64,000 bases of DNA. It comes from a virus. The stretch spans positions 1-64,000 of IMG/VR virus record IMGVR_UViG_3300047160_006886. The stretch is one strand, 5' to 3'. This document shows, piece by piece, positions 11,381-55,790 of the stretch. The notes under the pieces are model-generated. The model did not search any database. It saw only the letters and a program-made list of their open reading frames with translations, and was not told the DNA's origin. Position 1 is the first letter of the stretch, and each line of letters starts with the position of its first letter. Made by a program: the position numbers and the translations under genes.

Positions 11381-12697
11381 CTACCTAGTAGCAATTGCAT
11401 CCAAAATTCCACAGTTTCCGTAGAAATCTGCTCTGAGCTGGGGAACTTGGATGCACATCACCTTGAAGTTGAGTCTCATTCCACCTATCGACTCCCACTG
11501 CACGGTGGTGATATCCATGCCATTGACCGCCCTCGCCACATCAGGTGTCATCTGCACCATGATGAGCCGGAACGGTGAGAGAGCGATGTCCACGTCGGTG
11601 CCGGGGCCGCGAGAGGCCGAGCCGGCACCAGTGGCCGGGATCGAACCAAACAAGAAGTCGAGACGCCGGACATCGGTGATGCCCTCGATGGACTTGAGAC
11701 GCTCCCGGAGGGTCTGGGTCGCCACGCCAGCTACGCCACCGATGCCGCCGACCACGATGTAGTCGGAGTCCATGTACTGGTCCCAATCATTGCTGTGGTA
11801 CAACATAAAGGGACCATAGAACTTATTGAGATAAAGCTGATCTCGCATGGCGAGAACATCTTTCAGCGTGTCGAGCGGCGTCCAGCCGGAGCCGGTTCGG
11901 CCGTTGCCGGTCGGCTTGTAGTTCGTGGTCAGAGCGATGCGGTTCGGGAAGTTGATGTACCCATAGACCGTGCTGTTGCGACCGTAGCCGCCGGCGTAGG
12001 TCGAGGCGCCGCCGTAGGTCACGCCAGTGCTGACACCGATGGTCGTCTTCTCTATTTTTTCCGCCACACGACGGCCGGCTGCTTCACCCATCGTCACGTC
12101 GAGCGGGGTGCCGGTGTTGCGGGAGATCGCCAGCTTGCGGGCCGAGAACCAGAAGTCGCTGTGCGTGATGGGGAGTGGCAAGCCCTGGAGCTGGAATAAT
12201 GGCTGGTCGGTGCGGCCTTCGGTCAGGGCGTCCATGTCGACGATGGCCTCGCCGGGATCGCTCATGGTCTCGTGCTCAAGGATCATCTTGGCCATGCCGT
12301 TGAAGCCGCCGAAGCTGTTACTGGCAGCCAGATCGGCCCAAGCCCGCAGACGAAAGCGAGCGGCACGGAGAACCACGGCGTCGAGCATGATCCACTCTTC
12401 CTTGCGAAGCGTTGCGGCATTGAAGACCGGATGGTCGATACCGTTGGCTCGGAGGTCCTGGATGCGGACGTTTTCATACTCGATCCGCCGCTCCATCTTG
12501 CCCGAGTCGCGGTTGCGGACCAGGCGTGGACCCTTGTTGACCATGCAGCAGGGACGACCCCGCTCATCCCGGAACGGCCGGAGCAAACCGGAATCCCAGA
12601 CGATCCCGTCATGTCCGGTCGCAGCGATCCCATCGCCGATGGGGCCGTAGCCACGTCCGTCGAGGAGGTAAGAAGCACTTGCGAACATCTTTACCAT
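11381..12697 (-). CDS. Major capsid protein (HK97 fold, linocin-M18/encapsulin-like phage clade)
   Basis: NAATLRKEEW..LD, LPLPITHSDF, YGYINFPNR, FYGPFMLY and TTVQWE...LNFKVM.IQVPQLRAD motifs; follows the protease/scaffold/decoration genes. Confidence 0.9.
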   Translation of the reverse strand: MVKMFASASYLLDGRGYGPIGDGIAATGHDGIVWDSGLLRPFRDERGRPCCMVNKGPRLVRNRDSGKMERRIEYENVRIQDLRANGIDHPVFNAATLRKEEWIMLDAVVLRAARFRLRAWADLAASNSFGGFNGMAKMILEHETMSDPGEAIVDMDALTEGRTDQPLFQLQGLPLPITHSDFWFSARKLAISRNTGTPLDVTMGEAAGRRVAEKIEKTTIGVSTGVTYGGASTYAGGYGRNSTVYGYINFPNRIALTTNYKPTGNGRTGSGWTPLDTLKDVLAMRDQLYLNKFYGPFMLYHSNDWDQYMDSDYIVVGGIGGVAGVATQTLRERLKSIEGITDVRRLDFLFGSIPATGAGSASRGPGTDVDIALSPFRLIMVQMTPDVARAVNGMDITTVQWESIGGMRLNFKVMCIQVPQLRADFYGNCGILDAIATR

Positions 12698-19900: not shown

Positions 19901-20098
19901 TTATGGATTGTACTTCTCTCCGGTCGCGATGCCAAGGATCTCCTCACCTGGCAGCAGAGGTGGCCCGACGATAACACCGAAACAATCAGCGGCAGAGTCA
20001 CGACGCTTCTTCGCTTGCTCCTCGGTCAGACCTTCGGCGATCTCTGCTTCGCTCAACTCAAACTTGAATGGCTGATACGTCTTATCTTGGTTGTCCAT
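19901..20098 (-). CDS. Small acidic protein directly after the ART domain (candidate immunity/partner)
   Basis: ATG 1 nt after the toxin stop; 65 aa. Confidence 0.5.
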   Translation of the reverse strand: MDNQDKTYQPFKFELSEAEIAEGLTEEQAKKRRDSAADCFGVIVGPPLLPGEEILGIATGEKYNP

Positions 20099-20099
20099 C

Positions 20100-22307
20100 T
20101 CACGACTCCTCCAGATCCACAAAAAGCCGCACCTTCCCCTGATTGTGAATGTTGGCGTTCTTGTGAATACCTTTGACTATGTAAACCGTTCCGTGCCTAC
20201 CGATCAGCTCCTTCTCAGACTTGAACCCATCAGACGAAATGATGGGATGAACTCCCTTGGTCTTGATCCGTAGCAGTAGTTTACCATAAGAAAATCCATA
20301 GCTCGTCGACGGTGACAGACTCGTCCCATGTGGGGCAGTATCCACATATGTCCCGCCGACGCCCTGATCCTCAAGCTTCTTGATCAATTCGTCCGAGTAC
20401 GCTCCGTGGATGCCTCGATATACAGTTCCTGCATACGGAGGAGACTTATATACCGCACTAAGAAAGTTCTTCGTCGACTCGCTCTGCGTGCCCGTGGTGA
20501 CCTGATTTCGCATCGAACTCTGACTGCCGCCTTTCCAATGGGCAATGGCAGATCTTTCGGATGAACTGAGACTTGCTGCCCATTTCTCGTGCTGCTTCTC
20601 TTGTTCGGCCGTCATGCTCGACGATGTCAAATGGTGAGTTGCGCCGTCGGTAGTACCGGCGGCGATCTCTGCCTGTGTCATCGGTTTGACTGTCGCCGAT
20701 GGCTTACCGACCTCAACTCCAGCGGCACCGAAGTCCAGCTCCGATTCGTGATGGACCTTCGAGTACTTCGGAACTGAGATGCCCTTGGCGGCGAGCTTCC
20801 CAGGGGTGATCGAACTCTTCTTGATCACCGTTCCGGCCGGCAGAACCTTCCCGAGGTCCTCTATCTTCTTGGCATTGGCTCCCTTATCACCGGAGAACAT
20901 CGGCACCTTGATCACGCCGTTCTTGATCCCTTGTGGATTCAAAGCGCTAATCTTTGCCAGCTGCATGTGCGTGAATTGGACCGTTCCCTTGTTCTGAAAC
21001 AGATGCTTGACCAATCCGTTGGCAGAATGGAGTTGATGCTCTGTCGACGCCTGCGGATACGTCTGCGACTGTGTCGGAGTGTACGTCGGAGCCGGAGCCG
21101 GCTTGGGAATACCTGTTCCTTCTTTCTCCTTCAACCAGTTCTGCAAGCTATCAAACCGCTTGTCGACGATGGCACGCGTCTCCGGGTTCTTGATCGCTTT
21201 CAGCACGTCCATTTTCTTCGGCAGGATCTCCTTGATCTGTTCTTTGATCTCTTTATCCCCGATATGCCCGAACACACTCGCAGCACTCGGATTCAGACTC
21301 GAATTGCGAAGTGTACTTAGTTCGCCAACTTCAGACCCAAACTTGTGCCCCTTCGCCGCCCCTTGCGCCCTGTACAGCAACGCTCCTCCATTGTCGGCCC
21401 GCAAGGCAGTTCCGTCTTTGGTGATGAGAATGTTGTCCTTCGTCAGCCCTGCCACATCCCAATTAGCAAGTAGAGAATCAGCTACAAAGTGCTTGCCGAT
21501 CTGCTCATGCATCTTGGCAATGTCGGCGGGACTATGAGAGCTCTCGTATTCTGCGAGAGTTTGAACTCCCTCATGGTATTCGCTGACCTTGGCGATTCCC
21601 GTCGTTCCAGCAGCGGGAGCAATGCCGGACTTCGGGACTTTGACTCCAAGAGCGCGGTAAGCGTTGTCAGCATCCACCTCGTTGGCCAGTTGTAATTGCT
21701 TGGCTGGACTGCTCTTCACGACCCAGCGATTACCAGCCTCGTCTTCCATCAACTTCGGGCCAGTAGTTCCAGGCAGATCCTTGATGTATTTCATACCCTC
21801 CACTGGCGGCACATAGTCCGGTGGGAAATAAACAGGATGAGGCGTGCTCAGAGGAGCGACAGGCAGAGCGGGAGGAGCGACAGGCGTTGTCAATATCGTG
21901 CCTGGTTTCGATACTCCAAAGAATGCCCAGCCATTGACAGCGGTATCCGATCCCTTCACCGCCTTGGCTGCGGATGTCAGGCTGCCATATGTCTTATCAC
22001 CGATCTTGAAGCCACCGTGTACCACCTCTACCTTGAATGTCTGTCCTTTGTAGACCTTCTCGAACGATCCACCCACAGGAGGCAGAACCTGACCAGAAAC
22101 AGCTGCAGCACCGACGCCGCCAGGAGAGCAGCTTGGATCGACGCCCCCGCCGGGGCCGGTTGGACAGAACGCATTTATCACCGGGTCGTCCTGCTGATCC
22201 TCCCACTCCATCCAGAAGAGAGGATCGCTCTCATCAAGGTCAAACTCCTGCTCCGAGATGACTGGCCCGGATACGTGTCCGCGAAGAGCTGCTAATGTCT
22301 CACCCAC
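20100..22307 (-). CDS. Multidomain effector: tag + DUF2924 + HipA/PI3-4-kinase-like + ADP-ribosyltransferase
   Basis: NAFCPTGPGGGVDPSC tag; SLTSAAKAVKG...NGWAFFG; kinase VVK...NEV...NWD...DNIL...DNGG; ART YRG...GTS...EKE (R-S-E class). Confidence 0.8.
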   Translation of the reverse strand: MGETLAALRGHVSGPVISEQEFDLDESDPLFWMEWEDQQDDPVINAFCPTGPGGGVDPSCSPGGVGAAAVSGQVLPPVGGSFEKVYKGQTFKVEVVHGGFKIGDKTYGSLTSAAKAVKGSDTAVNGWAFFGVSKPGTILTTPVAPPALPVAPLSTPHPVYFPPDYVPPVEGMKYIKDLPGTTGPKLMEDEAGNRWVVKSSPAKQLQLANEVDADNAYRALGVKVPKSGIAPAAGTTGIAKVSEYHEGVQTLAEYESSHSPADIAKMHEQIGKHFVADSLLANWDVAGLTKDNILITKDGTALRADNGGALLYRAQGAAKGHKFGSEVGELSTLRNSSLNPSAASVFGHIGDKEIKEQIKEILPKKMDVLKAIKNPETRAIVDKRFDSLQNWLKEKEGTGIPKPAPAPTYTPTQSQTYPQASTEHQLHSANGLVKHLFQNKGTVQFTHMQLAKISALNPQGIKNGVIKVPMFSGDKGANAKKIEDLGKVLPAGTVIKKSSITPGKLAAKGISVPKYSKVHHESELDFGAAGVEVGKPSATVKPMTQAEIAAGTTDGATHHLTSSSMTAEQEKQHEKWAASLSSSERSAIAHWKGGSQSSMRNQVTTGTQSESTKNFLSAVYKSPPYAGTVYRGIHGAYSDELIKKLEDQGVGGTYVDTAPHGTSLSPSTSYGFSYGKLLLRIKTKGVHPIISSDGFKSEKELIGRHGTVYIVKGIHKNANIHNQGKVRLFVDLEES

Positions 22308-25300
22308 CGAGGTGCTCCTTCAGCAGTGCAGTCGTGTAATGAGCATCGAAGATCTTCGCCATCCCTGGATGTCGCTTGCGATAGCCCTCAAGGAACTTTC
22401 CGTCTCCACCCTCATACTTATCTCGGTATATCTCGCGGTGGTAGAGACGATAATGCTCAGCGAAATTCTCTTCCCAGTTGTCCAGACTACGACGACCGGC
22501 CACACCGTACTTTTCCTCGTACCATTCGTGAGGCATCTTAGTCTTGAGTCCGGCCGGGTCTGCTTTTACCCGGTCCATGACTTTCTTGTACTCATCGCTG
22601 ATGGCTTCGGTCATAGTGTTTTTGTTGCTGTAAGACGAACCACCCAGAGACCCCCGGAGGACATGCCCCAGCTCGTGCCTGTAGCTTCCTGGTCTGGTCG
22701 TCGAGCCAACCTCGATCTGACGTGATCCGAGATTGGCCAGGGCTTCACCGCCGAGAGCAGTCTTATGTACTGTGATCTTCGTCAGAGCGTCCAAGTCATA
22801 CTTCGGCGTATCACTGAACTCCTTCACTGGTCCGCCCGCAAGTCCACTCGTAATCTCCACAACTCGATTCGGATTTCCTCTGACGACCTGGGTCACGGCG
22901 TTCTCGACAGCACTACCAGACTTAAAGATAGAACCGGTCACCTTTGTTCGCATTTCCATATCCGATGACAGACCAGCCTTTAACTGCTCTTTCGAGTAGC
23001 CAGTATCTTTCGCTACTGACGACAGGACCGACCCCAAGCCATGTTCGGTAGTTGGCGACGGAGTGGTTACCGCAGGAGGAAGAGGGAGGAGAGACTGGGG
23101 AGCTGCTTTCGTCAGACCGAAGAACGCCCAGCCATTTATCGGCGTGTCAGTGCCCCGGACAGCCTTCGCCGCCGCAGTGAGACTCTTGTGAACTTTGTCT
23201 CCGATCTTATAGCCATCGTGCGTGACTTCAACTTTGATCTTCTGTCCTTTGTACGTTTTCTCAAACGTGCCTCCAACCGGAGGGTGGGGCTGACCCTTTC
23301 CGGGCGAACATGAGTTATCCTGACCTCCCCCAGGTCCGGTTGGACAAAAGGCATTATACGTTAGTGGTTCCTTACCTTTTGGATTGTAGACCTGTAATGC
23401 CCAGATGAATTTATGCCCGGCCTTTCTGAATTCGTTCACTCGATGGTGTCCGTCTTCAACTGACCATTTCGAGTGTTTACTCTCCTCCATCCCCTCCGGA
23501 ACGCCCTCGGTTATGACCGGCGGATGCAATCCAGATGGATTTTTCTTGATAATACTCGCTATGTCTTTTCTTGGTGGTGAGTCACCGATAGGATTCTCAG
23601 ACCCAGCTAGAGCACGAACAGGAACAGACACCAGTTTCCATTTCAGTTCTCTGATATTGCGAACATTACCTGCTTCAGCTTCCGAAACAGCATCTTCAAC
23701 CAGCTTCTTACTGGGGGGATCGTACTTTGGCTTCTCCGAATGAGAGCACGAAGGATCAACTCCTCCACCTTTTCCAGTTGGACAGAAAGCGTTCCACGTG
23801 TACCCCGGCCACGGGCACGCCGGCCACAACCGGGCTCCATCGGTGCCGAAGTGTCGGATGTTGAGGATCGACTTAGGCCGCGATGTCGAAAGTGGGGAAC
23901 CAGTGACCGCCCCGACCACCTTCAGTATCGTGCTGATGGCCGACTTCGACCGCTTCTGACCCTTGGTATCTTCGCCGACGTTGGCCGGAATCCAAGCGCA
24001 GCGACAATTCGGGTGCTGGGGCAACATGCCGCGAGCCTCGTCGGTCGTCAGGACCACCCCGTCGAGCTGTTCACAATCGGGACAGACGTCCTCATCGTCA
24101 GCAGTCGACCACTCGACGGCAGCGCCGACCTCTTCGATGCCCAGGGCGTCGAAGCCGTCGAGCTGCCCTTCGGCGTGGGCACGGATGATCTCGGTTCTGG
24201 CGATGGTCAGGGCCCTCTCGCGGCCGACGTCGACCGCCTTGGAGAGGTCACGGCCGATGTCTCTCGGAGACTGCCCCTGGACCAGCCCGTCGAGAAGGGT
24301 CCGAGACATCCTGATCGCCATCAGCTGGGTGACTCCATCCAGCTCGGTGAAAACCCTCCCGGCCAATTGCTTGACGCGGTCGATGGAGATTGGGTTGGCG
24401 AAGGCCGAGCGGAGGAACTGGGCCTTGGTTCCTTCGAAGAAGTCCATCGGTTCACCCATCGTCTGACCGAGGGCCTTCTCGGCGGCGGTGGCATCCTCGA
24501 ATGCCCTCCCCTGGCCCTTGGCGTACCCTTGCATGATGTACTGCTGCCAGAGCTGATCCATCGTCTGGCCGCGAATCTGCGACTGGACCTGCTGCTTGAG
24601 CCACGCCTTGAACGCCTCGACCTGTTCAGAGGTGGTGTGGAACTTCCAGCGAGTGTTGTCAATCAAAGCGTTGCGAGTCTGGGCTTTCACTCGAACCTCA
24701 GATCGTTCGGCATCTCTCGCTCTCTTTTCCATCTGATCTCGCGTCAGTTCATCTCTTTTATCGGTGATATCCCTAGCATGTTGCAGTTCGTGCCGCCAAG
24801 TCCGTCCTGCTTGATCCTTCAGTTCTGGATCAGTAAAAAGTATATGAGGAAGATTTACTCTAGCTCCACCTTTGCCATCTCCGAACGCTTGTGGCAATGC
24901 GTTCTTCAAGACATGAACAGTCACTCCGTGCATAGGAACGTGGGCTTCCCCTTCCAACCATTCTAGATACCTCTTCGCTCTAGCATTCCCAGCTCTCAGT
25001 TTGCCAGAACTCCTAACTTTTGGCGAACAGCTTGGATCAACTCCTCCGCCCTCGCCGGTGGGACAGAAGGCGTTGCGAGTGAGCGTATATTCCTTCATCG
25101 CAGGAAGATCTCTGACATCAACAGAGTATCCGTAGGACTTGCCAATCTCCTTGGAGATCCTGTCGTAGAACACCACTCGACTCGGCTCGCTCTTCGCGGC
25201 AGTGAACTCCATCGACCTCGGCTGCTTGTCCTTGATGAACTGACTCAAGGATGTCTGCACTCCTCGGAGCACCTTGATCGGAGACGTGTTCGGATCGTGA

Positions 25301-27534
25301 GTCATCAGAGACGTTCCTTCCGACGACCCTCGCTTGGACTCAAGTCCGAATCCTATGTCCCAGTGCCCTCCTCCTCCATGTTCTGCGTCGAAGAAGAACT
25401 GCCTATCTCCAACTTCAAACTTGGTGGAATATCGCAGACCATCATCCTTGACAATCTCGTGCCTCGAAGAGCAGCTGTTGTCTTCACCCCCACCTTCACC
25501 AGTTGCACAGAATGCATTGAGCACTCCATCCGCTCTCTTGCACTCCTCCCACGCCCTGGCGTACAGAGTCTTCGACCCCTCCTTTATCCGCCTGACCGCC
25601 TCAGCCTCGCCGGGGGTCATCTCCTCGCGCCCCTCATGCTCCATCGCCGCCTTGATAGCCCGGACCACGTCGTAGGCGTTGTGGTCTCGCTCCCGGGCAA
25701 TCCAGATCGGCTTGAGGCAGAAGATCACCTCGACGACGAAGCCGGAGGAGAGCCGGTAGTTAACCAGCAGGTCGCGGTAGCCGTTGGCCATCGGCTCCTT
25801 GAAGCGGTCCTTAGGTAGGCGAGCGAGAGAGCCGCCGGACTCCTCGACCCAAGAGAGGAGTTGATCGGCGGCGTCCCTCAGCTCCTGCATCGAGTCGGTC
25901 AGGACCGCCGCCCTGACGACATCGAGCAGCCGCGACCAGTCGCCGTCGTAGTCGCTCTTGACCTTCTCTTCGGCTCTCTCCTCCCCCTTCTGCGGGGCCA
26001 GGACGACGAGGCCGCCGGGCTTGTCCAGCTTAACCTCCAGGTCACCAAGTTCGAGATCCTGGTAGCGTACCATCGGATAACCCAGCTTAGCGAGCAGACC
26101 TTCCAGCTCATCCTGTCCTCCCTTGGCCATGTCTTTGAGGTCGTCGTAGTTGTCAGCATCGGAGATCGGCTGCTTCGGCTCGCCATAGACTTGCTCGACG
26201 ACCTCCGGCAGCAAGTCCTCCTCCCAGTCCTTGTCGCTCGTCGCATGGATCGACTTGTCATCAACATAGGCGACCGCCTCCATCTTCTTCTTGACCCCGT
26301 CATGGTCAATGCCCCACTCTTTGAGCTTCTTCCTGACTCCCGGCGGGTCGGGATTGGCGGTGAAGATGACAACCTTGAAGCCGGCTGCTCGCAGCTTCTT
26401 CAGTCCGTCCTTCGCTCCTTCCCTCAGAGTCATCCGATTGAAGTCGTGGACGCCGGGATCATTGGTGATGGTGCCGTCGAAGTCGATGCCAACCGTCCGC
26501 TGAGCATCAGGGACGGTGTTGAGAGCCGGCATCAGCGAGATGACGGTCTTCTCCCCGTCCGGGTCCGAGAAGACGAGGTCGGTCAGCGACATCTTCATCC
26601 TGGCCACGGAGTCGTCGCCTGTGTACTTCGGTCCCAGACCGGCCTTGACGTAGGCCAAGGTGACGTGCGGCGAGTATCCGGCGTGAGTCTCGACGTGGTC
26701 CAGGCTCGCCAAGAGGCGGTTCAGCCTCTCCAGCTCCGAGCTGACGACATCGATCTTCACCACGTCGGCACCGTCGCTGCTCTCGGTGGCCGGGAAGAAC
26801 GAAGTCTTGCCTAGCTCGATCTCGACGATGCCGAAGCCCGACACCAGCCGCCGGACCTCCTCCGGGTCCTTCGTGGTCAGGCCGTAGCGGACGGTCACGT
26901 GGATCTCATCCTCTTTGCCCTTCCCGGCCAAGTCGTCGTCGGCGATCCTGTCCTGCAGGGCGAGGATCTTCGGCAATGGATCGCCGGTCAGGTCGAACTG
27001 AGTTGAGGAATACCTGTGCTCACCTCCTTCACCAGTTGCACAAAAAGCATTATCCACGAACTCTGGTGACCAATCTTTGTAGGCAAACCCATCCACATCG
27101 ACGAAGCGACATGGCCCGCCCGGATAGTCCTGCTCGAAGCGGGAGCCGTCGGGGACGCCGTCGGGCAGGGGCATGAAGACGTTGACGGCGATGCGGAGGT
27201 TGCCGTTAGCTAGAGGGAGCGGCGGAGTCGCCATCCGCTGAGACCCGGCTTCCCTGCCGCTCCCCGACCCCGAGGTGAGGTTCGCTGTCGTTGTCTCCTT
27301 CAACCCCCTCAGACCAAAGGCGTCCTCGTCGACCACCAACTTGACGATCTGACCCTTGAGCCGGTCGAACTGCCGGCGGATCTTGGCGGCAAACTGGCGG
27401 CGGAGAGCCAGCGTCCGGGACGGGTCGATCCGGGACGGACTCTTCCGCCGCCTGGCATCCGTGCCGCCATGAGGAGACTTTCGGCGATTGATCGCTGCCC
27501 GCAGCTGGAACTTGCTCGGAGTGCGGATCTTCAT
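22300..27534 (-). CDS. MuF (SPP1 gp7-like) minor head polyprotein with multiple inserted effector domains
   Basis: MuF core IARTE...EWSTADD..VCPDC...PQHPNCRC; 2H HVT...HVT; HAD DFDGT; RelA/SpoT DVVR...GYRD; HELQH; DGHHR; DUF2924; HELGH...ENFAE. Confidence 0.9.
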   Translation of the reverse strand: MKIRTPSKFQLRAAINRRKSPHGGTDARRRKSPSRIDPSRTLALRRQFAAKIRRQFDRLKGQIVKLVVDEDAFGLRGLKETTTANLTSGSGSGREAGSQRMATPPLPLANGNLRIAVNVFMPLPDGVPDGSRFEQDYPGGPCRFVDVDGFAYKDWSPEFVDNAFCATGEGGEHRYSSTQFDLTGDPLPKILALQDRIADDDLAGKGKEDEIHVTVRYGLTTKDPEEVRRLVSGFGIVEIELGKTSFFPATESSDGADVVKIDVVSSELERLNRLLASLDHVETHAGYSPHVTLAYVKAGLGPKYTGDDSVARMKMSLTDLVFSDPDGEKTVISLMPALNTVPDAQRTVGIDFDGTITNDPGVHDFNRMTLREGAKDGLKKLRAAGFKVVIFTANPDPPGVRKKLKEWGIDHDGVKKKMEAVAYVDDKSIHATSDKDWEEDLLPEVVEQVYGEPKQPISDADNYDDLKDMAKGGQDELEGLLAKLGYPMVRYQDLELGDLEVKLDKPGGLVVLAPQKGEERAEEKVKSDYDGDWSRLLDVVRAAVLTDSMQELRDAADQLLSWVEESGGSLARLPKDRFKEPMANGYRDLLVNYRLSSGFVVEVIFCLKPIWIARERDHNAYDVVRAIKAAMEHEGREEMTPGEAEAVRRIKEGSKTLYARAWEECKRADGVLNAFCATGEGGGEDNSCSSRHEIVKDDGLRYSTKFEVGDRQFFFDAEHGGGGHWDIGFGLESKRGSSEGTSLMTHDPNTSPIKVLRGVQTSLSQFIKDKQPRSMEFTAAKSEPSRVVFYDRISKEIGKSYGYSVDVRDLPAMKEYTLTRNAFCPTGEGGGVDPSCSPKVRSSGKLRAGNARAKRYLEWLEGEAHVPMHGVTVHVLKNALPQAFGDGKGGARVNLPHILFTDPELKDQAGRTWRHELQHARDITDKRDELTRDQMEKRARDAERSEVRVKAQTRNALIDNTRWKFHTTSEQVEAFKAWLKQQVQSQIRGQTMDQLWQQYIMQGYAKGQGRAFEDATAAEKALGQTMGEPMDFFEGTKAQFLRSAFANPISIDRVKQLAGRVFTELDGVTQLMAIRMSRTLLDGLVQGQSPRDIGRDLSKAVDVGRERALTIARTEIIRAHAEGQLDGFDALGIEEVGAAVEWSTADDEDVCPDCEQLDGVVLTTDEARGMLPQHPNCRCAWIPANVGEDTKGQKRSKSAISTILKVVGAVTGSPLSTSRPKSILNIRHFGTDGARLWPACPWPGYTWNAFCPTGKGGGVDPSCSHSEKPKYDPPSKKLVEDAVSEAEAGNVRNIRELKWKLVSVPVRALAGSENPIGDSPPRKDIASIIKKNPSGLHPPVITEGVPEGMEESKHSKWSVEDGHHRVNEFRKAGHKFIWALQVYNPKGKEPLTYNAFCPTGPGGGQDNSCSPGKGQPHPPVGGTFEKTYKGQKIKVEVTHDGYKIGDKVHKSLTAAAKAVRGTDTPINGWAFFGLTKAAPQSLLPLPPAVTTPSPTTEHGLGSVLSSVAKDTGYSKEQLKAGLSSDMEMRTKVTGSIFKSGSAVENAVTQVVRGNPNRVVEITSGLAGGPVKEFSDTPKYDLDALTKITVHKTALGGEALANLGSRQIEVGSTTRPGSYRHELGHVLRGSLGGSSYSNKNTMTEAISDEYKKVMDRVKADPAGLKTKMPHEWYEEKYGVAGRRSLDNWEENFAEHYRLYHREIYRDKYEGGDGKFLEGYRKRHPGMAKIFDAHYTTALLKEHLGG

Positions 27535-38099: not shown

Positions 38100-38308
38100 G
38101 ATCGCGGATCTCCTCCGTGCTCCAACTCCTTGTCGACCTGCCACTCGCAGTTGGCCCACCTCGCTACGTTGGTCCTCTGCAACTCGAAGCAAGCGATACA
38201 CATCGGGGCCGGGTAGATCTCAAAGCCATTGCGGAAGATGGTCATGTCCGGGAAGGTCTCGGCCATCATGCCGCAGCGAAGGCAGGGTTCAGCAGGGCGG
38301 ATGGTCAC
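38096..38308 (-). CDS. Small zinc-finger protein
   Basis: CLRC...CIAC; coupled to the portal stop. Confidence 0.55.
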   Translation of the reverse strand: MTIRPAEPCLRCGMMAETFPDMTIFRNGFEIYPAPMCIACFELQRTNVARWANCEWQVDKELEHGGDPRS

Positions 38309-41300
38309 TGCATCTCCTCCTCCATCATATCGGCGACCTCGGCTATCCGGTCGTCGTCGTCGTCGTCGTTGCTCCTTCTGTTATCGACGCCTCGGTACCG
38401 ATTCTCTGTGTCCTCATCAGCCTCTTCATCCTCCTTTTGTTCCTTCGCCTCGCCCTCATCCTCATCACCCGACTCGGCTTTAGCTTCCTTCCTTGCCATT
38501 CCAGCTTCGGCGTCGGGAGACTGCTGCCCTCCATCCCCCCTGCCGCCTTGGCCATCACCGCCGCCCTCTCCTCCTTGCTGCTGTCCGTCGAGATTGGTGT
38601 CGCCGCCGAATCCATCACCGCCTCCTTTGGAAGGGTCCTTGTAACCTTCGGGAGCCTGCGGCACGTAGCCCTGCTCATCCGCCAGGTCTGCTCGCTCTTG
38701 CTCCTCCTCTTCCTGCCGCTTGGTGGCTTCATCAACGACCGCCTGCGACTCTTCCTCGGTCCAACCGAGGATCTTGGTGAAGAACGATTGCTCGCTCATG
38801 ATGTTCGACATCCCACCGGGACCGGCGTAGAGTTGCAGAGTCTGGGCGTTCTGAAATGCGATGCCGGCTTTGTCCTTCTTGCCCAGGGCGTCGACATCCG
38901 GCCACTCGATGCGGTAGCCGCCAGTGGCGACCTCGATCTGCTTGTCCTTGGTGCCCTTGGTCGCCTTGCCATTATCCTTTCCGTTCCCGTTCCCGCCGTT
39001 GCCGCTGTCATCATCGTCATCATCACCCTGATTTCCGACGAAGCGGTTCCTGGCGGCCTGCTTCTCGTAGACCATGTCGCGGATGGCTGCTGCCGTCGCG
39101 GTCTTCTTCTCACCGGATGGCGCGGTCAGTTCGTAGTGGGTGACCCACTTGCCCTCGTGCGGTATCGACTGTCCCATACCGAGCTTGTAGCCCATCTGCT
39201 TGAGTGCTGCCTGAACCTGCGGCAAGTTGGCCTTCCTCTTGTTCTTCGGCAGTTTAACTGAGTGAGTGCCCCCGCCATCGGCGAAGCGGCCGGCTTCATC
39301 TCGCGGCTGGTCCTCATCATAGTTGAAGGCGGGTACTGGCTGGCCAGGCTTGACCAGCAGGAAGTTCTTGACCAGCCGTCCGGTCGCCTGATCCCGACGG
39401 ATGACCTGTCGCTTGATCTTAAAGCCCTGCCGCAGGAGGTTCTGAACCTGCTCCTTCTGGCTCTCCTTAGGCTCGGGCAACACGCCGATCTGGATGAGCC
39501 GGTCGATGAGAGGGCAGATGATCTTCGGCGTGATGTAATTCTGCTGCCGCTCGGCCTTCCGCTTGTTCCAGGCTTCGTCGTCCTGGCTGCTGGCCAGTTC
39601 GCCTCGCTCCGAGCCCTTAAAGACACGAATCGGACAGCCAATCTTGATGCAGATCGCTTCGATGCAGGCATTTAAGTGCGGGGTCGGATCGACGACTGAT
39701 GGCGGCAGGGTCTTGGCCGACATGCCCATCAGCACGAGATATCGCTGGAGGCGGGCCTTGTAATCGACCATCATCTGGCGAATGCTCGGCTCGTCGATGA
39801 GCACATCGCCGCCCAGAGTTGGAGCGGTCTCCAGGCTGATAGACGGGAAGCAGCTTTGCCAGTAGCCCTCGGCGCCGGCACCGCGGACCTTCCTACGGTC
39901 AAGCACCTCAGGTAGGACCTGCTTCAATCGCGGGAAGCCGAAGATCTCCGAGTTGAGGAGGTTGTCGGCGATGTGGATGACCCTTGACCAATGCACGTAG
40001 ACAGTAGCCAGGGGTAGACCCACACCAGAATGAGGCTGGCGAGGATCATTAAGGGTAACCCGATACATAACAGGCAGACCGAATCGCGGGTTGCGGATGT
40101 TCCACTCATACCTCACCACCTGCACTAGGTCTTCTGAGAAACAGCGGAGGAAGACGAGTCGCCGCTTCTTCTTGGCCGGCTTGTCGGCGAAGCTCTCCGA
40201 GGGGCCGAACTGGACGCCGAAGTATTGCTGGTCAGTTCCACTGAGAGAAGGAGCAATTTCTCCGATAGGAGCCGGCATGCCGAGGCCGAATCCTTGACTG
40301 TACTGTCGGTCAGTTCCCTGGATGAACGGACCATCGCCCGGATATCCCGCACTCCGACCAAGATACGGGTCAATATCCGGCGTAGTTTTGTTTTCGACAC
40401 GCCCGCTGAGTGTTTCAGCCCCACCTCGATCAGAGCCAGCGACTCGTCGTCGGGCCTGAAGGGACTCGATGATCTTGACGTTGTTCTCATGGTTGGTAAC
40501 AAGTTGTCCTCCTCGCTTGTTGACGATGATGCGGCCGCGGTCGGTCAGGACGCAGGCTTGAGTCTGACGGTCCCACTTCCAGAGACCATCCCGCTTCAAG
40601 CTCTCCGCTTCCCGCTCCTCGACCCAGGGATCATAATTGAAAGTCGAGTCCTCGCGGTCGGTGACATCGAGCTGACCGATCTCTCTCGTCTCGCCGTTCT
40701 CCCACGTGGAGATCGGGATCACCTTTCTGTTATCGATGATGGCAATCTGCTCATTATCAGCCAGCTCCGCCGCCGACGGTGGATGATCGGGCAGGACCTC
40801 CTGGCAAGAGACCCACTCCAGCTGCCTCGTCTTGAGGTTGCGGACCTGGACGCGGGTATTGGCGATGACCTCAACACCATCGACCGGGTCCTGCAGATTC
40901 TTGCCATCGTCGAGACCGAGGAGGATGATGCCGAACTGGCCAATGCCTGAAGTGATATCCGCTCGAAGGATGTGCTCCCAGATCGGTGCACCCTGCTCTT
41001 CGGCATGCCACGAGCTGCCCGACATATTGACCTGATTAGCAGTGTCATCCCATGCCTCCTCAAACTCGGTCGCCTCGTCGGAATGCTCAGACTCGTAGAT
41101 GGTCGGAGCACCCTGGAAGCACTCCTTGGGCATCACCTCGACCACCCTGGCGGCGATGGCGTCCTGGTCGTAGAGGGAACGATAGAATTGCGGGGTCATC
41201 TCCTCCGGCGACGGCCAGCCGCACTCCTCGCGGATCATGTGACCCCGCTCGAAGAAGCGGTTGAAGAACTCGCTCCGGGAGGTGACGACCTGGTTGATGA

Positions 41301-41673
41301 CACCGTCCATGTTGGCGATGAACCGCTCCATGTCTTCGCGAGTCGGTGGCGTGCCCTGGAAGGTCCGCCGCAGATCACTCGGATCGAAGCCGTGAGCGTT
41401 GAAGGCAGGTCCGTTTTGACCATTGCCATTGCCGAATGGTGGAGGTGGGGGTGGGGGAGATGATCCGCCGAAGCCCCTCCACTCAGGAGGTGGAGATGCT
41501 CCGCCAGAGCCGGCTCCATCCGGCGGAGGAGAAGGTGGGGGTGAGCCGCCCCCGGTATTGCCAGTGGGGGGACTGCCTCCACCCGGAGTCTGTTCGTGCG
41601 TCTCTCCGGAAGAGTTGCCGACCGGCGGCTCTCCAGAATTGGTCGTCGGTGTTCTTCTTCGCTGCCTCGCCAT
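38305..41673 (-). CDS. Portal protein (DUF1073-like) with low-complexity termini and inserted modules
   Basis: LY.QDAIAARVVE..PKE, PRFGLPVMY, VHWSRVIH..D...FG.PRL and IGCPIRVFKGSERGELASSQD motifs; downstream of terL. Confidence 0.85.
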   Translation of the reverse strand: MARQRRRTPTTNSGEPPVGNSSGETHEQTPGGGSPPTGNTGGGSPPPSPPPDGAGSGGASPPPEWRGFGGSSPPPPPPPFGNGNGQNGPAFNAHGFDPSDLRRTFQGTPPTREDMERFIANMDGVINQVVTSRSEFFNRFFERGHMIREECGWPSPEEMTPQFYRSLYDQDAIAARVVEVMPKECFQGAPTIYESEHSDEATEFEEAWDDTANQVNMSGSSWHAEEQGAPIWEHILRADITSGIGQFGIILLGLDDGKNLQDPVDGVEVIANTRVQVRNLKTRQLEWVSCQEVLPDHPPSAAELADNEQIAIIDNRKVIPISTWENGETREIGQLDVTDREDSTFNYDPWVEEREAESLKRDGLWKWDRQTQACVLTDRGRIIVNKRGGQLVTNHENNVKIIESLQARRRVAGSDRGGAETLSGRVENKTTPDIDPYLGRSAGYPGDGPFIQGTDRQYSQGFGLGMPAPIGEIAPSLSGTDQQYFGVQFGPSESFADKPAKKKRRLVFLRCFSEDLVQVVRYEWNIRNPRFGLPVMYRVTLNDPRQPHSGVGLPLATVYVHWSRVIHIADNLLNSEIFGFPRLKQVLPEVLDRRKVRGAGAEGYWQSCFPSISLETAPTLGGDVLIDEPSIRQMMVDYKARLQRYLVLMGMSAKTLPPSVVDPTPHLNACIEAICIKIGCPIRVFKGSERGELASSQDDEAWNKRKAERQQNYITPKIICPLIDRLIQIGVLPEPKESQKEQVQNLLRQGFKIKRQVIRRDQATGRLVKNFLLVKPGQPVPAFNYDEDQPRDEAGRFADGGGTHSVKLPKNKRKANLPQVQAALKQMGYKLGMGQSIPHEGKWVTHYELTAPSGEKKTATAAAIRDMVYEKQAARNRFVGNQGDDDDDDSGNGGNGNGKDNGKATKGTKDKQIEVATGGYRIEWPDVDALGKKDKAGIAFQNAQTLQLYAGPGGMSNIMSEQSFFTKILGWTEEESQAVVDEATKRQEEEEQERADLADEQGYVPQAPEGYKDPSKGGGDGFGGDTNLDGQQQGGEGGGDGQGGRGDGGQQSPDAEAGMARKEAKAESGDEDEGEAKEQKEDEEADEDTENRYRGVDNRRSNDDDDDDRIAEVADMMEEEMQ

Positions 41674-48263: not shown

Positions 48264-49910
48264 TCACCTCTGAATCGATCCTACCATATCGGAAGAAAAT
48301 CTCGGCTGAGCGTGGGGACCGGCGACCACCTTCCTCGGCTCGTGCAGCATGCCCCAACAAGCAAGGACGAAGGCGTCTGCCTCGTCAGGAGAGCAGCCGA
48401 GGATCTCGGTCAGCGTCTTCTCCCTGGAGTCGGGGTCCTTCTTGTTCTTGGCTGGCAGGTACAGCCTGCCTTCGCCGTCTCTCAACCTGGGAATGCCGGC
48501 GAGCTGACGACTCAGCTCCCAATACGGGTCTCCCCGCCGTCCTCGCGGCAGTCCGAATCCTCGCGGGTTGATGGAAGGGTCGAAGAGCATCGAGGCTTCC
48601 CCGTACATCTCTGCCCTGCGATTGACGTAGACGTAGCGATCCTCCCTCATCTCCAGGCGGGTGGCGAAGGGAACCTTGCTGGTGCCCCGCCTGATGTCAG
48701 CCAAGATACCCTCGCCGAAGGCCACCGTCCGCACCTCGTAGCCTTGAGCCCTGAGGCGATCCGCATGCTGCTTCCCTCCACCACCACGGTCTAAGAGCAC
48801 GTTCTGCCAGTCCTCTCGCTTCTGCGGACTCAACCACCGCTTGGCGAAGGCGATGATGTCGCCGGTCACCTCACTCGTGTCCGGAGTCTTGCGAGACTCG
48901 ACCTCGATCACGCCTAGCTCGTCCACCGCGACCATCGCAGTGTTTGCTGAGCCCTCGCCAGGGTCAACTCCAACTGCTCTAGCCTTTCGATGACTCCGCG
49001 AAGCATTCTGCGGAAGCTCCTCAGCTCTCGTGAGCCAATCTTGGGAGAAGAGCTTGTTCTCTGGGCCTTCGTAGAACTCTGCCTTGTGCGCGACCGAGAT
49101 CCACTCCGGGTCGTCGGCCCTGGTCTCTTGTTCTTCACGGTATCTGCTCCAGCTCTTGACTCCAGGCACCAGGATCTCGTCGGTCGGCTCGACGCCAGCA
49201 GCGATCTGAGATCGGGCGTACCTCACGTTCGGGGAGTCCTCGGCGGTCAGGCGGAGGACGTTCCTGAACAGCTTGCCGTCGACGATCCGGTTGCCCTCCT
49301 TGACGGCCCTCCGCCAGAAGTTGTCGCACGGCCAGGTGTTGCCGATGACCAGGATGCGGTCGGCCCACGGAGCGGCGGTGTCCATGTACTCGTCGTTGAC
49401 CGAACTCGCCTCGTCGACGATGAAGAGCGTCCTCGGGATGCCGTCCGAGCTGGCGATGTGGTGGCCTCCCATCGCGGCCATCGAGTCGGCCGAGGCGACC
49501 ATGCCCTTGCAGTAGCTCTTCGGACAGACGCCGTCGCGAGTCACCTTCCTCAGCTCCTGGTGGTTGATGATCAACGGCCCGCCCAGCTTGAAGTCCAACA
49601 CGAACTTGCACGTGCGGATGAAGTTGTTGATCTCCCCCCAGAGCACGCGGAGGTGGTCCTCCTTGGCCGAGGTGGTGATGATGCGGCAGGGATGCCTCGT
49701 CAGGAAGAAACAGAACGCCTCCCAGCCGGCCACGAAGTCCTTGCCCATCTGTTGGCTCGCCGGCACGAAGGTCTGACGGTTGTCGAGGACCGAGAACAGG
49801 ATGTCCTCCTCCTCGGGATAGAACCAGTAGGGAGAGCCGTCTGGCTGCCGGGAGAAGCCGTCCGGGAAGCACAGCTTGGCGAACTCGACTGGGTCGATCT
49901 GCTGGCTCAT
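48264..49910 (-). CDS. terL: Terminase large subunit
   Basis: Walker A ASQQMGKD, Walker B FIVDEAS, coupling motif IGNT, nuclease VGVDPG...SPDEADA. Confidence 0.9.
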   Translation of the reverse strand: MSQQIDPVEFAKLCFPDGFSRQPDGSPYWFYPEEEDILFSVLDNRQTFVPASQQMGKDFVAGWEAFCFFLTRHPCRIITTSAKEDHLRVLWGEINNFIRTCKFVLDFKLGGPLIINHQELRKVTRDGVCPKSYCKGMVASADSMAAMGGHHIASSDGIPRTLFIVDEASSVNDEYMDTAAPWADRILVIGNTWPCDNFWRRAVKEGNRIVDGKLFRNVLRLTAEDSPNVRYARSQIAAGVEPTDEILVPGVKSWSRYREEQETRADDPEWISVAHKAEFYEGPENKLFSQDWLTRAEELPQNASRSHRKARAVGVDPGEGSANTAMVAVDELGVIEVESRKTPDTSEVTGDIIAFAKRWLSPQKREDWQNVLLDRGGGGKQHADRLRAQGYEVRTVAFGEGILADIRRGTSKVPFATRLEMREDRYVYVNRRAEMYGEASMLFDPSINPRGFGLPRGRRGDPYWELSRQLAGIPRLRDGEGRLYLPAKNKKDPDSREKTLTEILGCSPDEADAFVLACWGMLHEPRKVVAGPHAQPRFSSDMVGSIQR

Positions 49911-50206
49911 TTGACCTCTCCGGTCACCATGTCGACGCCGCTCTCGATCTCCGGTACCAAGCCGACCTCGGGATCGACGAGAGAAGCGGCCTTGAGGCGG
50001 CGACGAGACTCCAAAGTCTTCTCCCGCTCCTCGGCCCTCTGCTCCGGCGTCGCCGCCTCGTGCATCGCCTTGAGCATCGGAATGAACTCGTTCTTGCACC
50101 GCTGGCAGCTCTGAGCGTGCCGGATCAAGGCTGCCAATTCAGACGGAGTCTCCAGAGGGGCATCGGCAGGACGGTTGATAAAAGCTCGCAGTTGATCGCA
50201 GGTCAT
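49907..50206 (-). CDS. zf-HC2 (ZAS anti-sigma-like) zinc-finger protein
   Basis: MTCDQLR...HAQSCQRC; GGAGG RBS; ATGA couplings. Confidence 0.65.
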   Translation of the reverse strand: MTCDQLRAFINRPADAPLETPSELAALIRHAQSCQRCKNEFIPMLKAMHEAATPEQRAEEREKTLESRRRLKAASLVDPEVGLVPEIESGVDMVTGEVK

Positions 50207-54335: not shown

Positions 54336-55790
54336 CTACCCACGCTTCCCGTCCCTGGTTGCACGCAATTTCGACCACTTCATTCCATCCCGTTCCCGCA
54401 CTGGGTCAATACCTGCATATGAAGAGAACCGATCCAGGCAGACATCCACGTATCTTGGCTCAATCTCCACGGCGTAACATACGCGAGCGGTCTGTTGGGC
54501 AGCGATGATCGTGGTTCCACTCCCAACGTAGATATCCGTCACCACGTCGCCAGGATCGGTGTGCCGCAGGATAGCGTTGACAGGTAACTCAACAGGCTTG
54601 GTAGTTGCGTGGTCCGGCGAACGTAATGGGTTATCTACTTCCCATATCGTTGTGCGGAACTCTCCCGCGTCCCTTTTCTTGTGTGTCCGTTTCCAAGTGA
54701 AGAGGATAGGTTCGTGCTGATAGTCGTAGTCAAGACGGTTCAGCGAGAACGTGGCTCGATTCTTCTTCCAGATAATGACGTGCTTGACGGGTAGTTTCGC
54801 GTCTTGCATAAGTAGCAGCATCGTTAAACCCAAGTCACCTCCCTGAGCCGAACAGACAAATACTGAGCAGTCATCAGCAAGGTGCGGATAACAGGCGTTA
54901 AATCCCTTCACTAACACTTCGCGCAGATCTTTCGGAGCAATAGAATCGTCTTTGATATCTACTAAACAGCGTCCAGCCTTCTGGACGCTGTTTAGCAGCC
55001 TATTCTTAGCTCCAATCGATACTCCATAAGGCGGATCAGTAAAAAGCAACGTCGCCAGCTTCCCGTTCATCACTTTCTTCAGACATCGAGGATCTGTGGA
55101 GTCACCGCACAGCAATCGATGTTCACCAAGAAACCAGAGGTCTCCGACTGATGACAATGGCTCTCGTGGTGGCTCGGGGACCTCATTCGGGTCTCCCTGT
55201 GCCTTTGGCTGCAGCATTAGTCGCAGACCAACAATCTCTTGCGGAGTCCATCCCGGCATGATCGACTGGCCGGCTGCACTGCACATCCGCTCGATCCGGC
55301 CGACGACCTCGAAGTCCCAGCGGGCGTGCTCGGCCGTGCGGTTGTCGGCCACCCCGTACCCGGCGGCGGCCACGTCGTCGAGGTCGGTCCAGATCACCCC
55401 GGCCTTGGTCCAGGACATCTGCTTCATCGCTTCGAGCGTGCCGTTGCCCTTGATCACGATCCGGCTCTTCCTCCTCACCACCAGCGGGGTCTGCTGACCG
55501 TAGATCGACAACGACAGCTTGATGCTGTCGATGTTCCGCTCGGGGTGGAGGCGGGCGTTCATCGGATCGGGCTTCAAGGTCTTGATGTCCACGATCTCGA
55601 CTTTGGACAACGACTTGGCGATGAAGTCCTTCCGCTCGGGGATGGCCGGAGCGGCGAGAGCCTCGTCGGCCTTGCCGTCCCCATCTGCTTGCTGAGGTTT
55701 GGACAGCATCCCGGCAGGACCACGGTTCGTCAACTTGCCACTGGACTTCGAGAGCAGTCCCGAGGGACCGCGATTGGTCAGACTTGGCAT
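54336..55790 (-). CDS. ParB-like N-terminal domain + N6/N4 DNA methyltransferase
   Basis: LKPDPMNARLH...GNGTLEA...ADNRTAE; HRLLCGDS, TDPPYG, HATTKPVEL and DIYVGSGTT. Confidence 0.9.
   Translation of the reverse strand: MPSLTNRGPSGLLSKSSGKLTNRGPAGMLSKPQQADGDGKADEALAAPAIPERKDFIAKSLSKVEIVDIKTLKPDPMNARLHPERNIDSIKLSLSIYGQQTPLVVRRKSRIVIKGNGTLEAMKQMSWTKAGVIWTDLDDVAAAGYGVADNRTAEHARWDFEVVGRIERMCSAAGQSIMPGWTPQEIVGLRLMLQPKAQGDPNEVPEPPREPLSSVGDLWFLGEHRLLCGDSTDPRCLKKVMNGKLATLLFTDPPYGVSIGAKNRLLNSVQKAGRCLVDIKDDSIAPKDLREVLVKGFNACYPHLADDCSVFVCSAQGGDLGLTMLLLMQDAKLPVKHVIIWKKNRATFSLNRLDYDYQHEPILFTWKRTHKKRDAGEFRTTIWEVDNPLRSPDHATTKPVELPVNAILRHTDPGDVVTDIYVGSGTTIIAAQQTARVCYAVEIEPRYVDVCLDRFSSYAGIDPVRERDGMKWSKLRATRDGKRG

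Follow-up and report, generated by a model that had tools for sequence, protein, structure and literature searches.

Polyvalent proteins, as defined by Iyer, Burroughs, Anand, de Souza and Aravind (2017, J Bacteriol, PMC5512222), carry many disparate effector domains on one polypeptide, are linked to the head protein family MuF and to late virion genes, and contain embedded zincin-like peptidases. Fusions of 2H and of RelA/SpoT domains to MuF were listed in that work, with the proposal that the 2H domains degrade nucleotide signals and that the RelA/SpoT domains trigger an alarmone-like response. In the Apk2 MuF toxins (PMC12226406), likewise, a single phage head protein unites MuF with a RelA/SpoT-fold (RSH) domain that resembles adenosine 3'-pyrophosphokinases. 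Structures have been solved for relatives of the single enzymes: Tas1/Apk1, a (p)ppApp synthetase and effector of the type VI secretion system (T6SS; PDB 6ox6); Acb1, an anti-CBASS protein of ~150 residues that stands alone and has a 2H fold with two HxT motifs (PDB 7t26/7t27, 9q2g); and BT0820-type HADs, minimal, cap-less Rossmannoid enzymes with the motif set DxDxT/T/K/DD (PDB 2obb, 1xpj; HAD-IIIA-like). Here we describe a protein (P0001) in which a 2H, a HAD and an RSH domain lie side by side within what looks like a discontinuous MuF domain. It is encoded in a window of 64,000 nucleotides, positions 1 to 64,000 of IMG/VR record IMGVR_UViG_3300047160_006886, an uncultivated phage contig of 111,990 bases estimated to be 93% complete.

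The interval 25530–27015 (minus strand) corresponds to residues 174–668 of one open reading frame, with the following features:

22300–27534, minus strand: whole gene of the polyvalent MuF protein P0001, a single open frame of 5,235 bases and 1,744 residues; G+C fraction at third codon positions (GC3) 0.69

27289–27435, minus strand: N-terminal helix of MuF (residues 34–82), DPSRTLALRRQF...DAFGL, recurring at the N-terminus of MuF proteins

27016–27051, minus strand: first, degenerate Cys-Gly tag (residues 162–173), NAFCATGEGGEH, upstream boundary of the cassette, found by motif scan

26521–27015, minus strand: 2H phosphoesterase domain (residues 174–338), HxT motifs at 26881–26904 and 26647–26670, assigned by Pfam, profile and AlphaFold 2 (AF2)/Foldseek

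26200–26502, minus strand: cap-less HAD phosphatase domain (residues 345–445), assigned by phrog_1238 (4.6e-16) and by profile against the PDB

25519–26124, minus strand: Tas1-like RSH domain (residues 471–672), Syn4 variant EVIFCL at 25708–25737, assigned by profile and Foldseek

25480–25518, minus strand: second Cys-Gly tag (residues 673–685), downstream boundary of the cassette, found by motif scan

23935–24672, minus strand: MuF core (residues 955–1200), ending in HPNCRC, assigned by Pfam PF04233, TIGR01641 (4.1e-15) and invariant columns of alignment A4

The three enzyme domains form a single cassette. A tag of consensus NAFC[AP]TGxGGGxDxSCS occurs at residues 162 (the degenerate copy), 673, 821, 1248 and 1394, with one more in the next open reading frame, and the tags at residues 162 and 673 make the 2H, HAD and RSH domains one tag-bounded unit (residues 162–672, 56.6 kDa). 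A first-pass annotation, made from the sequence alone, had described the three enzymes as inserts within ~870 residues; the extent of the insertion was right, but one cassette between two tags takes the place of three separate inserts. The models of both the 2H and the RSH domain have disordered ends, with a predicted local distance difference test (pLDDT) score below 50 for the first 10 residues of the former. Besides the cassette, the MuF insert holds the stretch of residues 83–161, a domain at residues 690–820 within a tag-bounded module of ~130 residues (686–820), and a zincin-like segment with the motif HELQH (838–930). Neither 27052–27288 (residues 83–161) nor 25075–25479 (residues 686–820) gave a family match in Pfam, PHROGs or NCBIfam. 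We consider it probable, though well short of certain, that this Acb1/LigT-like 2H, cap-less HAD and Tas1-like RSH-fold cassette, carried within the split MuF of a virion-associated polyvalent protein, acts on host nucleotides.

The RSH domain has the motifs KGEERAEEK (residues 516–524), DVVR, KDRF..P..NGYRD (575–588), EVIFCL (602–607) and H..Y (618–622), located as the first-pass annotation had placed them. The segment alone had no match in Pfam, NCBIfam or PHROGs, with none to PF04607 even at E ≤ 10, so the domain was placed only by family profile and fold search. A phmmer search of the PDB found Tas1 at 1.7e-3, and a 22-sequence profile (alignment A1) raised this match to 1e-17, with RelA, small alarmone synthetases (SAS) and Rel following at ~1e-3. 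The AF2 model (pLDDT 92.9) was closest in Foldseek to Tas1 (2e-7) and RelP/SAS2 (1e-6), followed by SAS1, CapRel and Rel, and so shows the synthetase fold of the superfamily, a Pol-beta-like nucleotidyltransferase with the RSH helices. The fold comparison that had been proposed as a check on the 2H and RSH assignments thus came out in favour of both, the 2H domain having 43 matches (see below) and the RSH domain matching Tas1, RelP/SAS and CapRel. When 1.84 billion representatives were searched exhaustively, 1,717 proved to be relatives at E ≤ 1e-3, and 616 of these still matched at E ≤ 1e-10; 31 of 85 relatives matched Pfam RelA_SpoT at E ≤ 1e-3, the best at 5e-8. All clusters retrieved from a protein atlas were unnamed; in one of them, 17% of the members have RelA_SpoT. 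Tas1, the best solved relative by both profile and fold, shares the motifs K-x-x-x-R-A-x-x-K, DY-GD and D-x-x-R, as well as the ExQ of the family consensus. It differs in its Syn3 loop (GYSG, against GYRD here) and in its PAAR/T6SS context, absent from the present protein, which is a virion protein with a HAD beside the RSH domain and ExI in place of ExQ.

This last difference is the main anomaly of the active site. The residues K516, R520, K524, D538, R541 and E602, among them the ATP-binding basic residues of Syn1, the catalytic Asp of Syn2 and the catalytic Glu of Syn4, are all present, each at least 95% conserved in the family, and the Syn4 motif is incomplete, reading E-V-I; the earlier remark that the usual EVQ had become EVI is thereby confirmed and proves to be unique. 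Across 153 aligned domains the Glu is invariant, the Gln occurs in 152 and Ile is found only here. The following His, present in 131 of the 153, is replaced by Cys in this copy alone, which converts ExQxH into ExIxC. Since E602, I604 and C606 alternate along one β-strand of the model, I604 and C606 should lie, by strand geometry, on the same face as the catalytic Glu. Otherwise, of the 25 columns conserved to 90% or more, only one departs from the family pattern in this domain (the family mean is 0.85), which indicates that the domain has not generally decayed. Sequencing error was considered and rejected as a source of EVIFCL: ATC versus CAG/CAA and TGC versus CAC/CAT differ at 2–3 bases each, and the frame is intact. 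A 184-base contig of one metagenome run (X1) matches 25577–25760 exactly, including the EVIFCL codons; this run may be the source sample, so it gives no independent support. As far as conservation of the Gln tells, the synthetase is probably impaired or re-specified in this copy, and simple alarmone synthesis by it is doubtful. The first-pass view that the injected enzymes degrade immune messengers and rewire alarmone pools is weakened in its alarmone part by the loss of Gln and His, unique among 153 domains, and the same roles had already been proposed (PMC5512222).

A fully active alarmone synthetase, tolerating the Gln-to-Ile change and making (p)ppApp or (p)ppGpp once injected, so as to shut down or reprogramme the host, is the rival that we take most seriously, and we rate it as rather unlikely. 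The retained residues speak for it (the ATP-binding K/R/K, D538, R541, the GYRD loop, E602, H618, Y622 and R626), as do the single deviating column, the position of Tas1 as closest solved relative and the fact that the MuF-linked Apk2 toxins make (p)ppApp (PMC12226406). Against this, the Gln is kept in all 152 other domains and the His on the same face is lost with it, and in Apk2 a stepwise conversion of the syn2, syn3 and syn4 motifs (syn4 from YH to IR) progressively inactivated the enzyme (PMC12226406). Depletion of ATP would also hurt a phage that depends on host energy. Pyrophosphorylation of tRNA, as by CapRel or FaRel2, is another activity that an RSH domain might have. The toxSAS enzymes that target tRNA are basic; the present domain is acidic, with an isoelectric point of 5.0–5.6 against a family median of 7.2, which argues weakly against such a target.

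The HAD phosphatase domain, which had been recognized from DFDGT, T, K and DD, bears out that reading. It is cap-less, and the residues of motifs I–IV are all in place (D351, D353, T355, T392, K417 and D425–D426) within IDFDGTI (residues 350–356), FTAN (390–394) and K...YVDD (416–427). In NCBIfam it reaches TIGR01662, HAD-IIIA, at 4e-7, below the cut-off, and related models likewise. A profile of the HAD–RSH dyad found the cap-less HADs 2obb (1.7e-9) and 1xpj (5e-8) in the PDB, and in the ten-sequence dyad alignment the T, the K and the DD of the HAD are invariant, while both Asp of DxDGT are present in at least 90% of the rows. Unlike BT0820-type HADs, this one is joined by a conserved linker helix to an RSH domain that follows it directly.

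This arrangement recurs. Among the 150 best RSH relatives, 20 have a HAD directly upstream, that is, within 80 residues, including all 16 top-ranked ones; a 2H domain co-occurs with the RSH domain in 14, and the RSH domain is C-terminal in 54. Such tight, recurrent linkage of HAD and RSH suggests coupled chemistry. Elsewhere in the family the RSH domain is accompanied by genuine Acb1 domains (6.4e-30), InPase, ART-PolyVal, a portal domain and, in one case, an HD_4 hydrolase, so that a phosphohydrolase beside this synthetase fold is a repeated theme. The HAD, and hence the HAD–RSH dyad, was not found by a text search of PMC5512222, where the RelA/SpoT examples are assigned to prophages of Spirochaetes and epsilon-Proteobacteria. 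Some relatives with an RSH domain are polyvalent themselves: P0004 has sigma-70 regions 2 and 4 together with a peptidase C39, P0168 a portal domain and P0028 an InPase pyrophosphatase. The family member with the HD_4 hydrolase is in this respect arranged as long RelA/SpoT enzymes are.

The 2H domain had also been predicted correctly, with both HxT motifs where the annotation had put them: IHVTVRYG (residues 211–218; H212-V-T214) and PHVTLAYV (289–296; H290-V-T292). The assignment is secure both by sequence and by predicted structure. The domain alone scores 28.1 bits against Pfam 2_5_RNA_ligase2 (cut-off 27), and its AF2 model (pLDDT 91.1) has 43 2H-type matches in Foldseek at E ≤ 1e-3. Eleven stand-alone homologues are 34–52% identical, and relatives of this subfamily carry Pfam Acb1 matches. 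In the 12-sequence alignment A2, H51-x-T53 and T131 are invariant and H129 nearly so (at least 90%). In the PDB the family profile ranks Acb1 structures highest (9q2g at 6e-5, then 9q2y and 7t26), with a cyclic phosphodiesterase (CPDase) far behind; the TM-scores of Acb1 against the model are 0.72–0.75, normalized to the target. The best match in BFVD is a piece of a large protein from an uncultured Caudovirales phage, 39% identical, which shows that this type of 2H domain recurs in phage proteins. At the level of sequence an Acb1-like enzyme is thus the best guess for this domain, plausible and not decisive.

RNA end-healing would be a different use for the same domains: the 2H domain, as a cyclic phosphodiesterase, and the HAD, as a 3'-phosphatase, would mend tRNA or mRNA after cleavage by host anticodon nucleases or by other RNases that need no metal, in the manner of T4 Pnkp or the healing half of a tRNA ligase. 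We think this improbable. It draws on the presence of drCPDase and LigT among the top fold matches of the 2H domain, on the "RNA ligase" label of phrog_755 and phrog_2659 and on weak matches of the HAD to polynucleotide kinase-phosphatase (phrog_415 at 0.01; Pnkp1, 4xrp, at 0.75). However, the 93%-complete genome yielded neither an RNA ligase (PF09414) nor RtcB, Iyer et al. (2017, PMC5512222) report that RNA ligases are never associated with 2H domains of the polyvalent type, and the conserved partner of the HAD is the RSH domain rather than the 2H domain.

Several observations weigh against the proposed action of the cassette on host nucleotides, or against parts of it. Against Pfam Acb1 (PF23474) the 2H domain scores 22 bits, under the cut-off of 27, and its fold does not discriminate, as drCPDase (a LigT-type CPDase), Usb1 and Acb1 score alike. 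The link to Acb1 drawn in the first-pass annotation consequently stands where the profile is concerned, Acb1 being the best solved relative, and fails to gain from the fold or from Pfam; Acb1 differs, too, in standing alone, whereas the present domain is cargo, below the cut-off and equally near to CPDase and Usb1 by fold. As for the RSH domain, the catalytic carboxylates of RelSeq are D264 and E323 (PMC7983052), and both of their equivalents, D538 and E602, are retained here, which would allow residual or normal activity. The Syn3 acceptor loop GYRD, each residue of which is present in at least 150 of the 153 domains, fits neither of the described signatures, SxH in guanosine RSHs and GxN in adenosine (Apk) enzymes (PMC12226406). 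Finally, the last homologue search found no relative above 54% identity, which leaves no sister phage in which to gauge selection on the Ile/Cys variant. In viral contigs a single-protein query found no relatives, and a query with alignment A3 found 12 loci, none of them close.

The MuF domain that encloses the cassette belongs to the MuF/SPP1 gp7 family, with PF04233 at 6.3e-15 (residues 1079–1181), the TIGR01641 match and the motif HPNCRC at residues 1174–1179. The N-terminal 161 residues alone have no match in PHROGs or Pfam, and the helix was placed through relatives: a homologue search with the N-terminal segment retrieved only MuF-bearing proteins. In one of these, P0156, the helix (residues 7–52) is followed after a gap of 15 residues by the core (68–312). 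Nine other relatives have longer gaps, from 131 residues in P0155 up to ~3,700 in P0014, and the present protein has one of 877, counted from the helix at residues 34–82 to residue 959, the first core residue aligned to P0156. The phrog_758 profile covers helix and core in both P0156 (profile positions 25–296) and P0155 (7–300). A co-fold of residues 28–84 with 950–1205 scored 0.78, against 0.02 for the best of three controls. A score this high was attained by 58 of 80 solved complexes, as well as by 2 of 110 mismatched pairs; this calibration is approximate, our own alignment having been used. Across runs at least 78% of contacts were shared, with a partner pLDDT of at least 71, and the helix touches the core helices 995–1010 and 1084–1121, within the Pfam MuF region. 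The co-fold, short of proof, supports docking of the helix on the core. The suspicion that MuF is split by ~870 residues is therefore upheld, and the helix-to-core junction looks like a recurrent site of cargo insertion. Among the 150 best RSH relatives, six proteins, the present one included, have both helix and core, and in all of them the RSH domain lies between the two. The passages of PMC5512222 that name MuF do not mention a discontinuous MuF with a cargo site. A separate intein-like insert interrupts the MuF HxNC|RC motif of relatives, as in P0156 (residues ~295–640; HVNC-VTGDS...VTSN-CRC), and the relative P0153 has a Pfam Intein_splicing match.

The same architecture bears on whether the protein is an Apk2-type MuF polymorphic toxin, serving a temperate phage in interbacterial competition and neutralized by a cognate immunity protein, an explanation to which we give very little weight. 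It has in its favour a characterized family (PMC12226406) and the presence of MuF and an RSH-fold domain within one protein. In Apk2, however, MuF is N-terminal and the toxin C-terminal, in agreement with the annotation's statement on described MuF toxins, and the immunity genes IapK and Aph1 follow, in temperate phages (PMC12226406). Here, the RSH domain (residues 471–672) lies inside MuF and ahead of its core (955–1200), and, in the manner of polyvalent proteins, the protein has upwards of eight further domains. Moreover, neither an HD_4 (RelA/SpoT-type, Aph1-like) hydrolase nor a tyrosine integrase was found in the record, which is 93% complete, IapK not having been searched for.

The gene lies between a portal and a capsid-like gene, with the terminase on the same strand, in a head module whose other recognized members are:

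48264–50099, minus strand: large terminase

38305–41673, minus strand: portal

11381–12697, minus strand: capsid-like gene

Together with PF04233, these neighbours link the protein to the virion, and its PHROGs matches are to head-morphogenesis families (top, phrog_758 at 2.4e-28). It also combines disparate activities, of which polyvalent proteins have at least two: 2H, HAD, RSH, MuF and DUF2924 were found by profile or fold, and the motifs HExxH and DGHHR can be read in the sequence.

The cassette might also be decaying cargo, an evolutionary relic with no current function. The unique loss of an invariant RSH residue and the degenerate first tag would fit a relic, but the 2H and HAD domains retain every catalytic motif, the RSH domain deviates at one conserved column in 25 (family mean 0.85), the frame of 5.2 kb is open and the models are confident (pLDDT 91 and 93); decay is accordingly hard to credit.

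Further observations concern the surroundings. The next open reading frame (P0151; 20100–22307, minus strand, 735 residues) runs in a different frame from the MuF gene, whose stop it overlaps by 8 bases. At its start are the same Cys-Gly tag and another copy of the DUF2924-like module, and at its end is an ADP-ribosyltransferase-like R-S-E motif set (YRG, STS, EKE). It could be either a separate gene or reached through a frameshift. Across 20000–24000, a region that includes the cassettes at the C-terminal end of the MuF protein as well as this following effector frame, the G+C fraction is 0.54 versus ~0.60 elsewhere, suggesting recently acquired cargo. A ParB-like nuclease fused to a DNA methyltransferase (54336–55790, minus strand; phrog_498, 2.4e-91) resembles the "ParB-methylase" theme of the polyvalent type. 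Four soil metagenome runs, each from a different study, contain short contigs of low depth (2–4x) that are identical to parts of 25400–27100, and it appears that the phage inhabits soil and occurs in several samples. No RNA run is listed among those that contain the sequence.

In the mechanism that we propose for the action of the cassette on host nucleotides, the cassette, residues 83–161, the downstream domain and the zincin-like segment would lie in a loop of MuF, with the N-terminal helix packing onto the core ~880 residues further on. MuF would bring the polyprotein close to the portal within the procapsid. The cassette may then be freed by processing, either at the Cys-Gly tags, which are candidate cleavage sites, or by the embedded zincins or the prohead protease, and would be ejected along with the DNA to act on host nucleotides early in infection. 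The 2H domain would most likely cut immune signals of the cyclic-oligonucleotide or 2',3'-cyclic-phosphate type, and the HAD and RSH domains may work as a coupled phosphatase/pyrophosphokinase pair on adenine or guanine nucleotides. The idea of virion-delivered enzymes acting on host nucleotide signals had already been put forward (PMC5512222). New relative to that paper are the HAD–RSH dyad in a Pfam-poor, Tas1-like clade, the discontinuous MuF insertion site and the unique Syn4 variant.

A bolder version, speculative and in our judgement unlikely as a whole, is that the dyad constitutes a new virion-delivered two-enzyme nucleotide-modifying unit, a 3'-pyrophosphokinase and a phosphatase acting in sequence, that MuF is a general "cargo loop", and that ExIxC marks a naturally re-specified form or a nucleotide-binding pseudoenzyme. 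If true, the dyad would parallel the hydrolase–synthetase pairing of long RelA/SpoT enzymes with a different hydrolase, and would make or trim a non-canonical 3'-phosphorylated nucleotide or neutralize an immune signal that has a free 3'-OH. Cargo-loop effectors of 15 to ~3,700 residues would then be tied at both ends to a portal-associated anchor until processing.

How phages counter immunity based on nucleotide signals (CBASS, Pycsar, type III CRISPR and Thoeris) is an active field of study, and enzymes delivered by the virion work ahead of any phage gene expression. The Tas1-like RSH clade, with at least 1,717 cluster representatives and a GYRD signature, was missed by Pfam here and is weakly detected in relatives. 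Its one copy with ExI in place of ExQ offers a natural way to probe the role of the invariant Gln, and the discontinuous MuF helps both the annotation of giant MuF proteins and the prediction of which of their parts are packaged.

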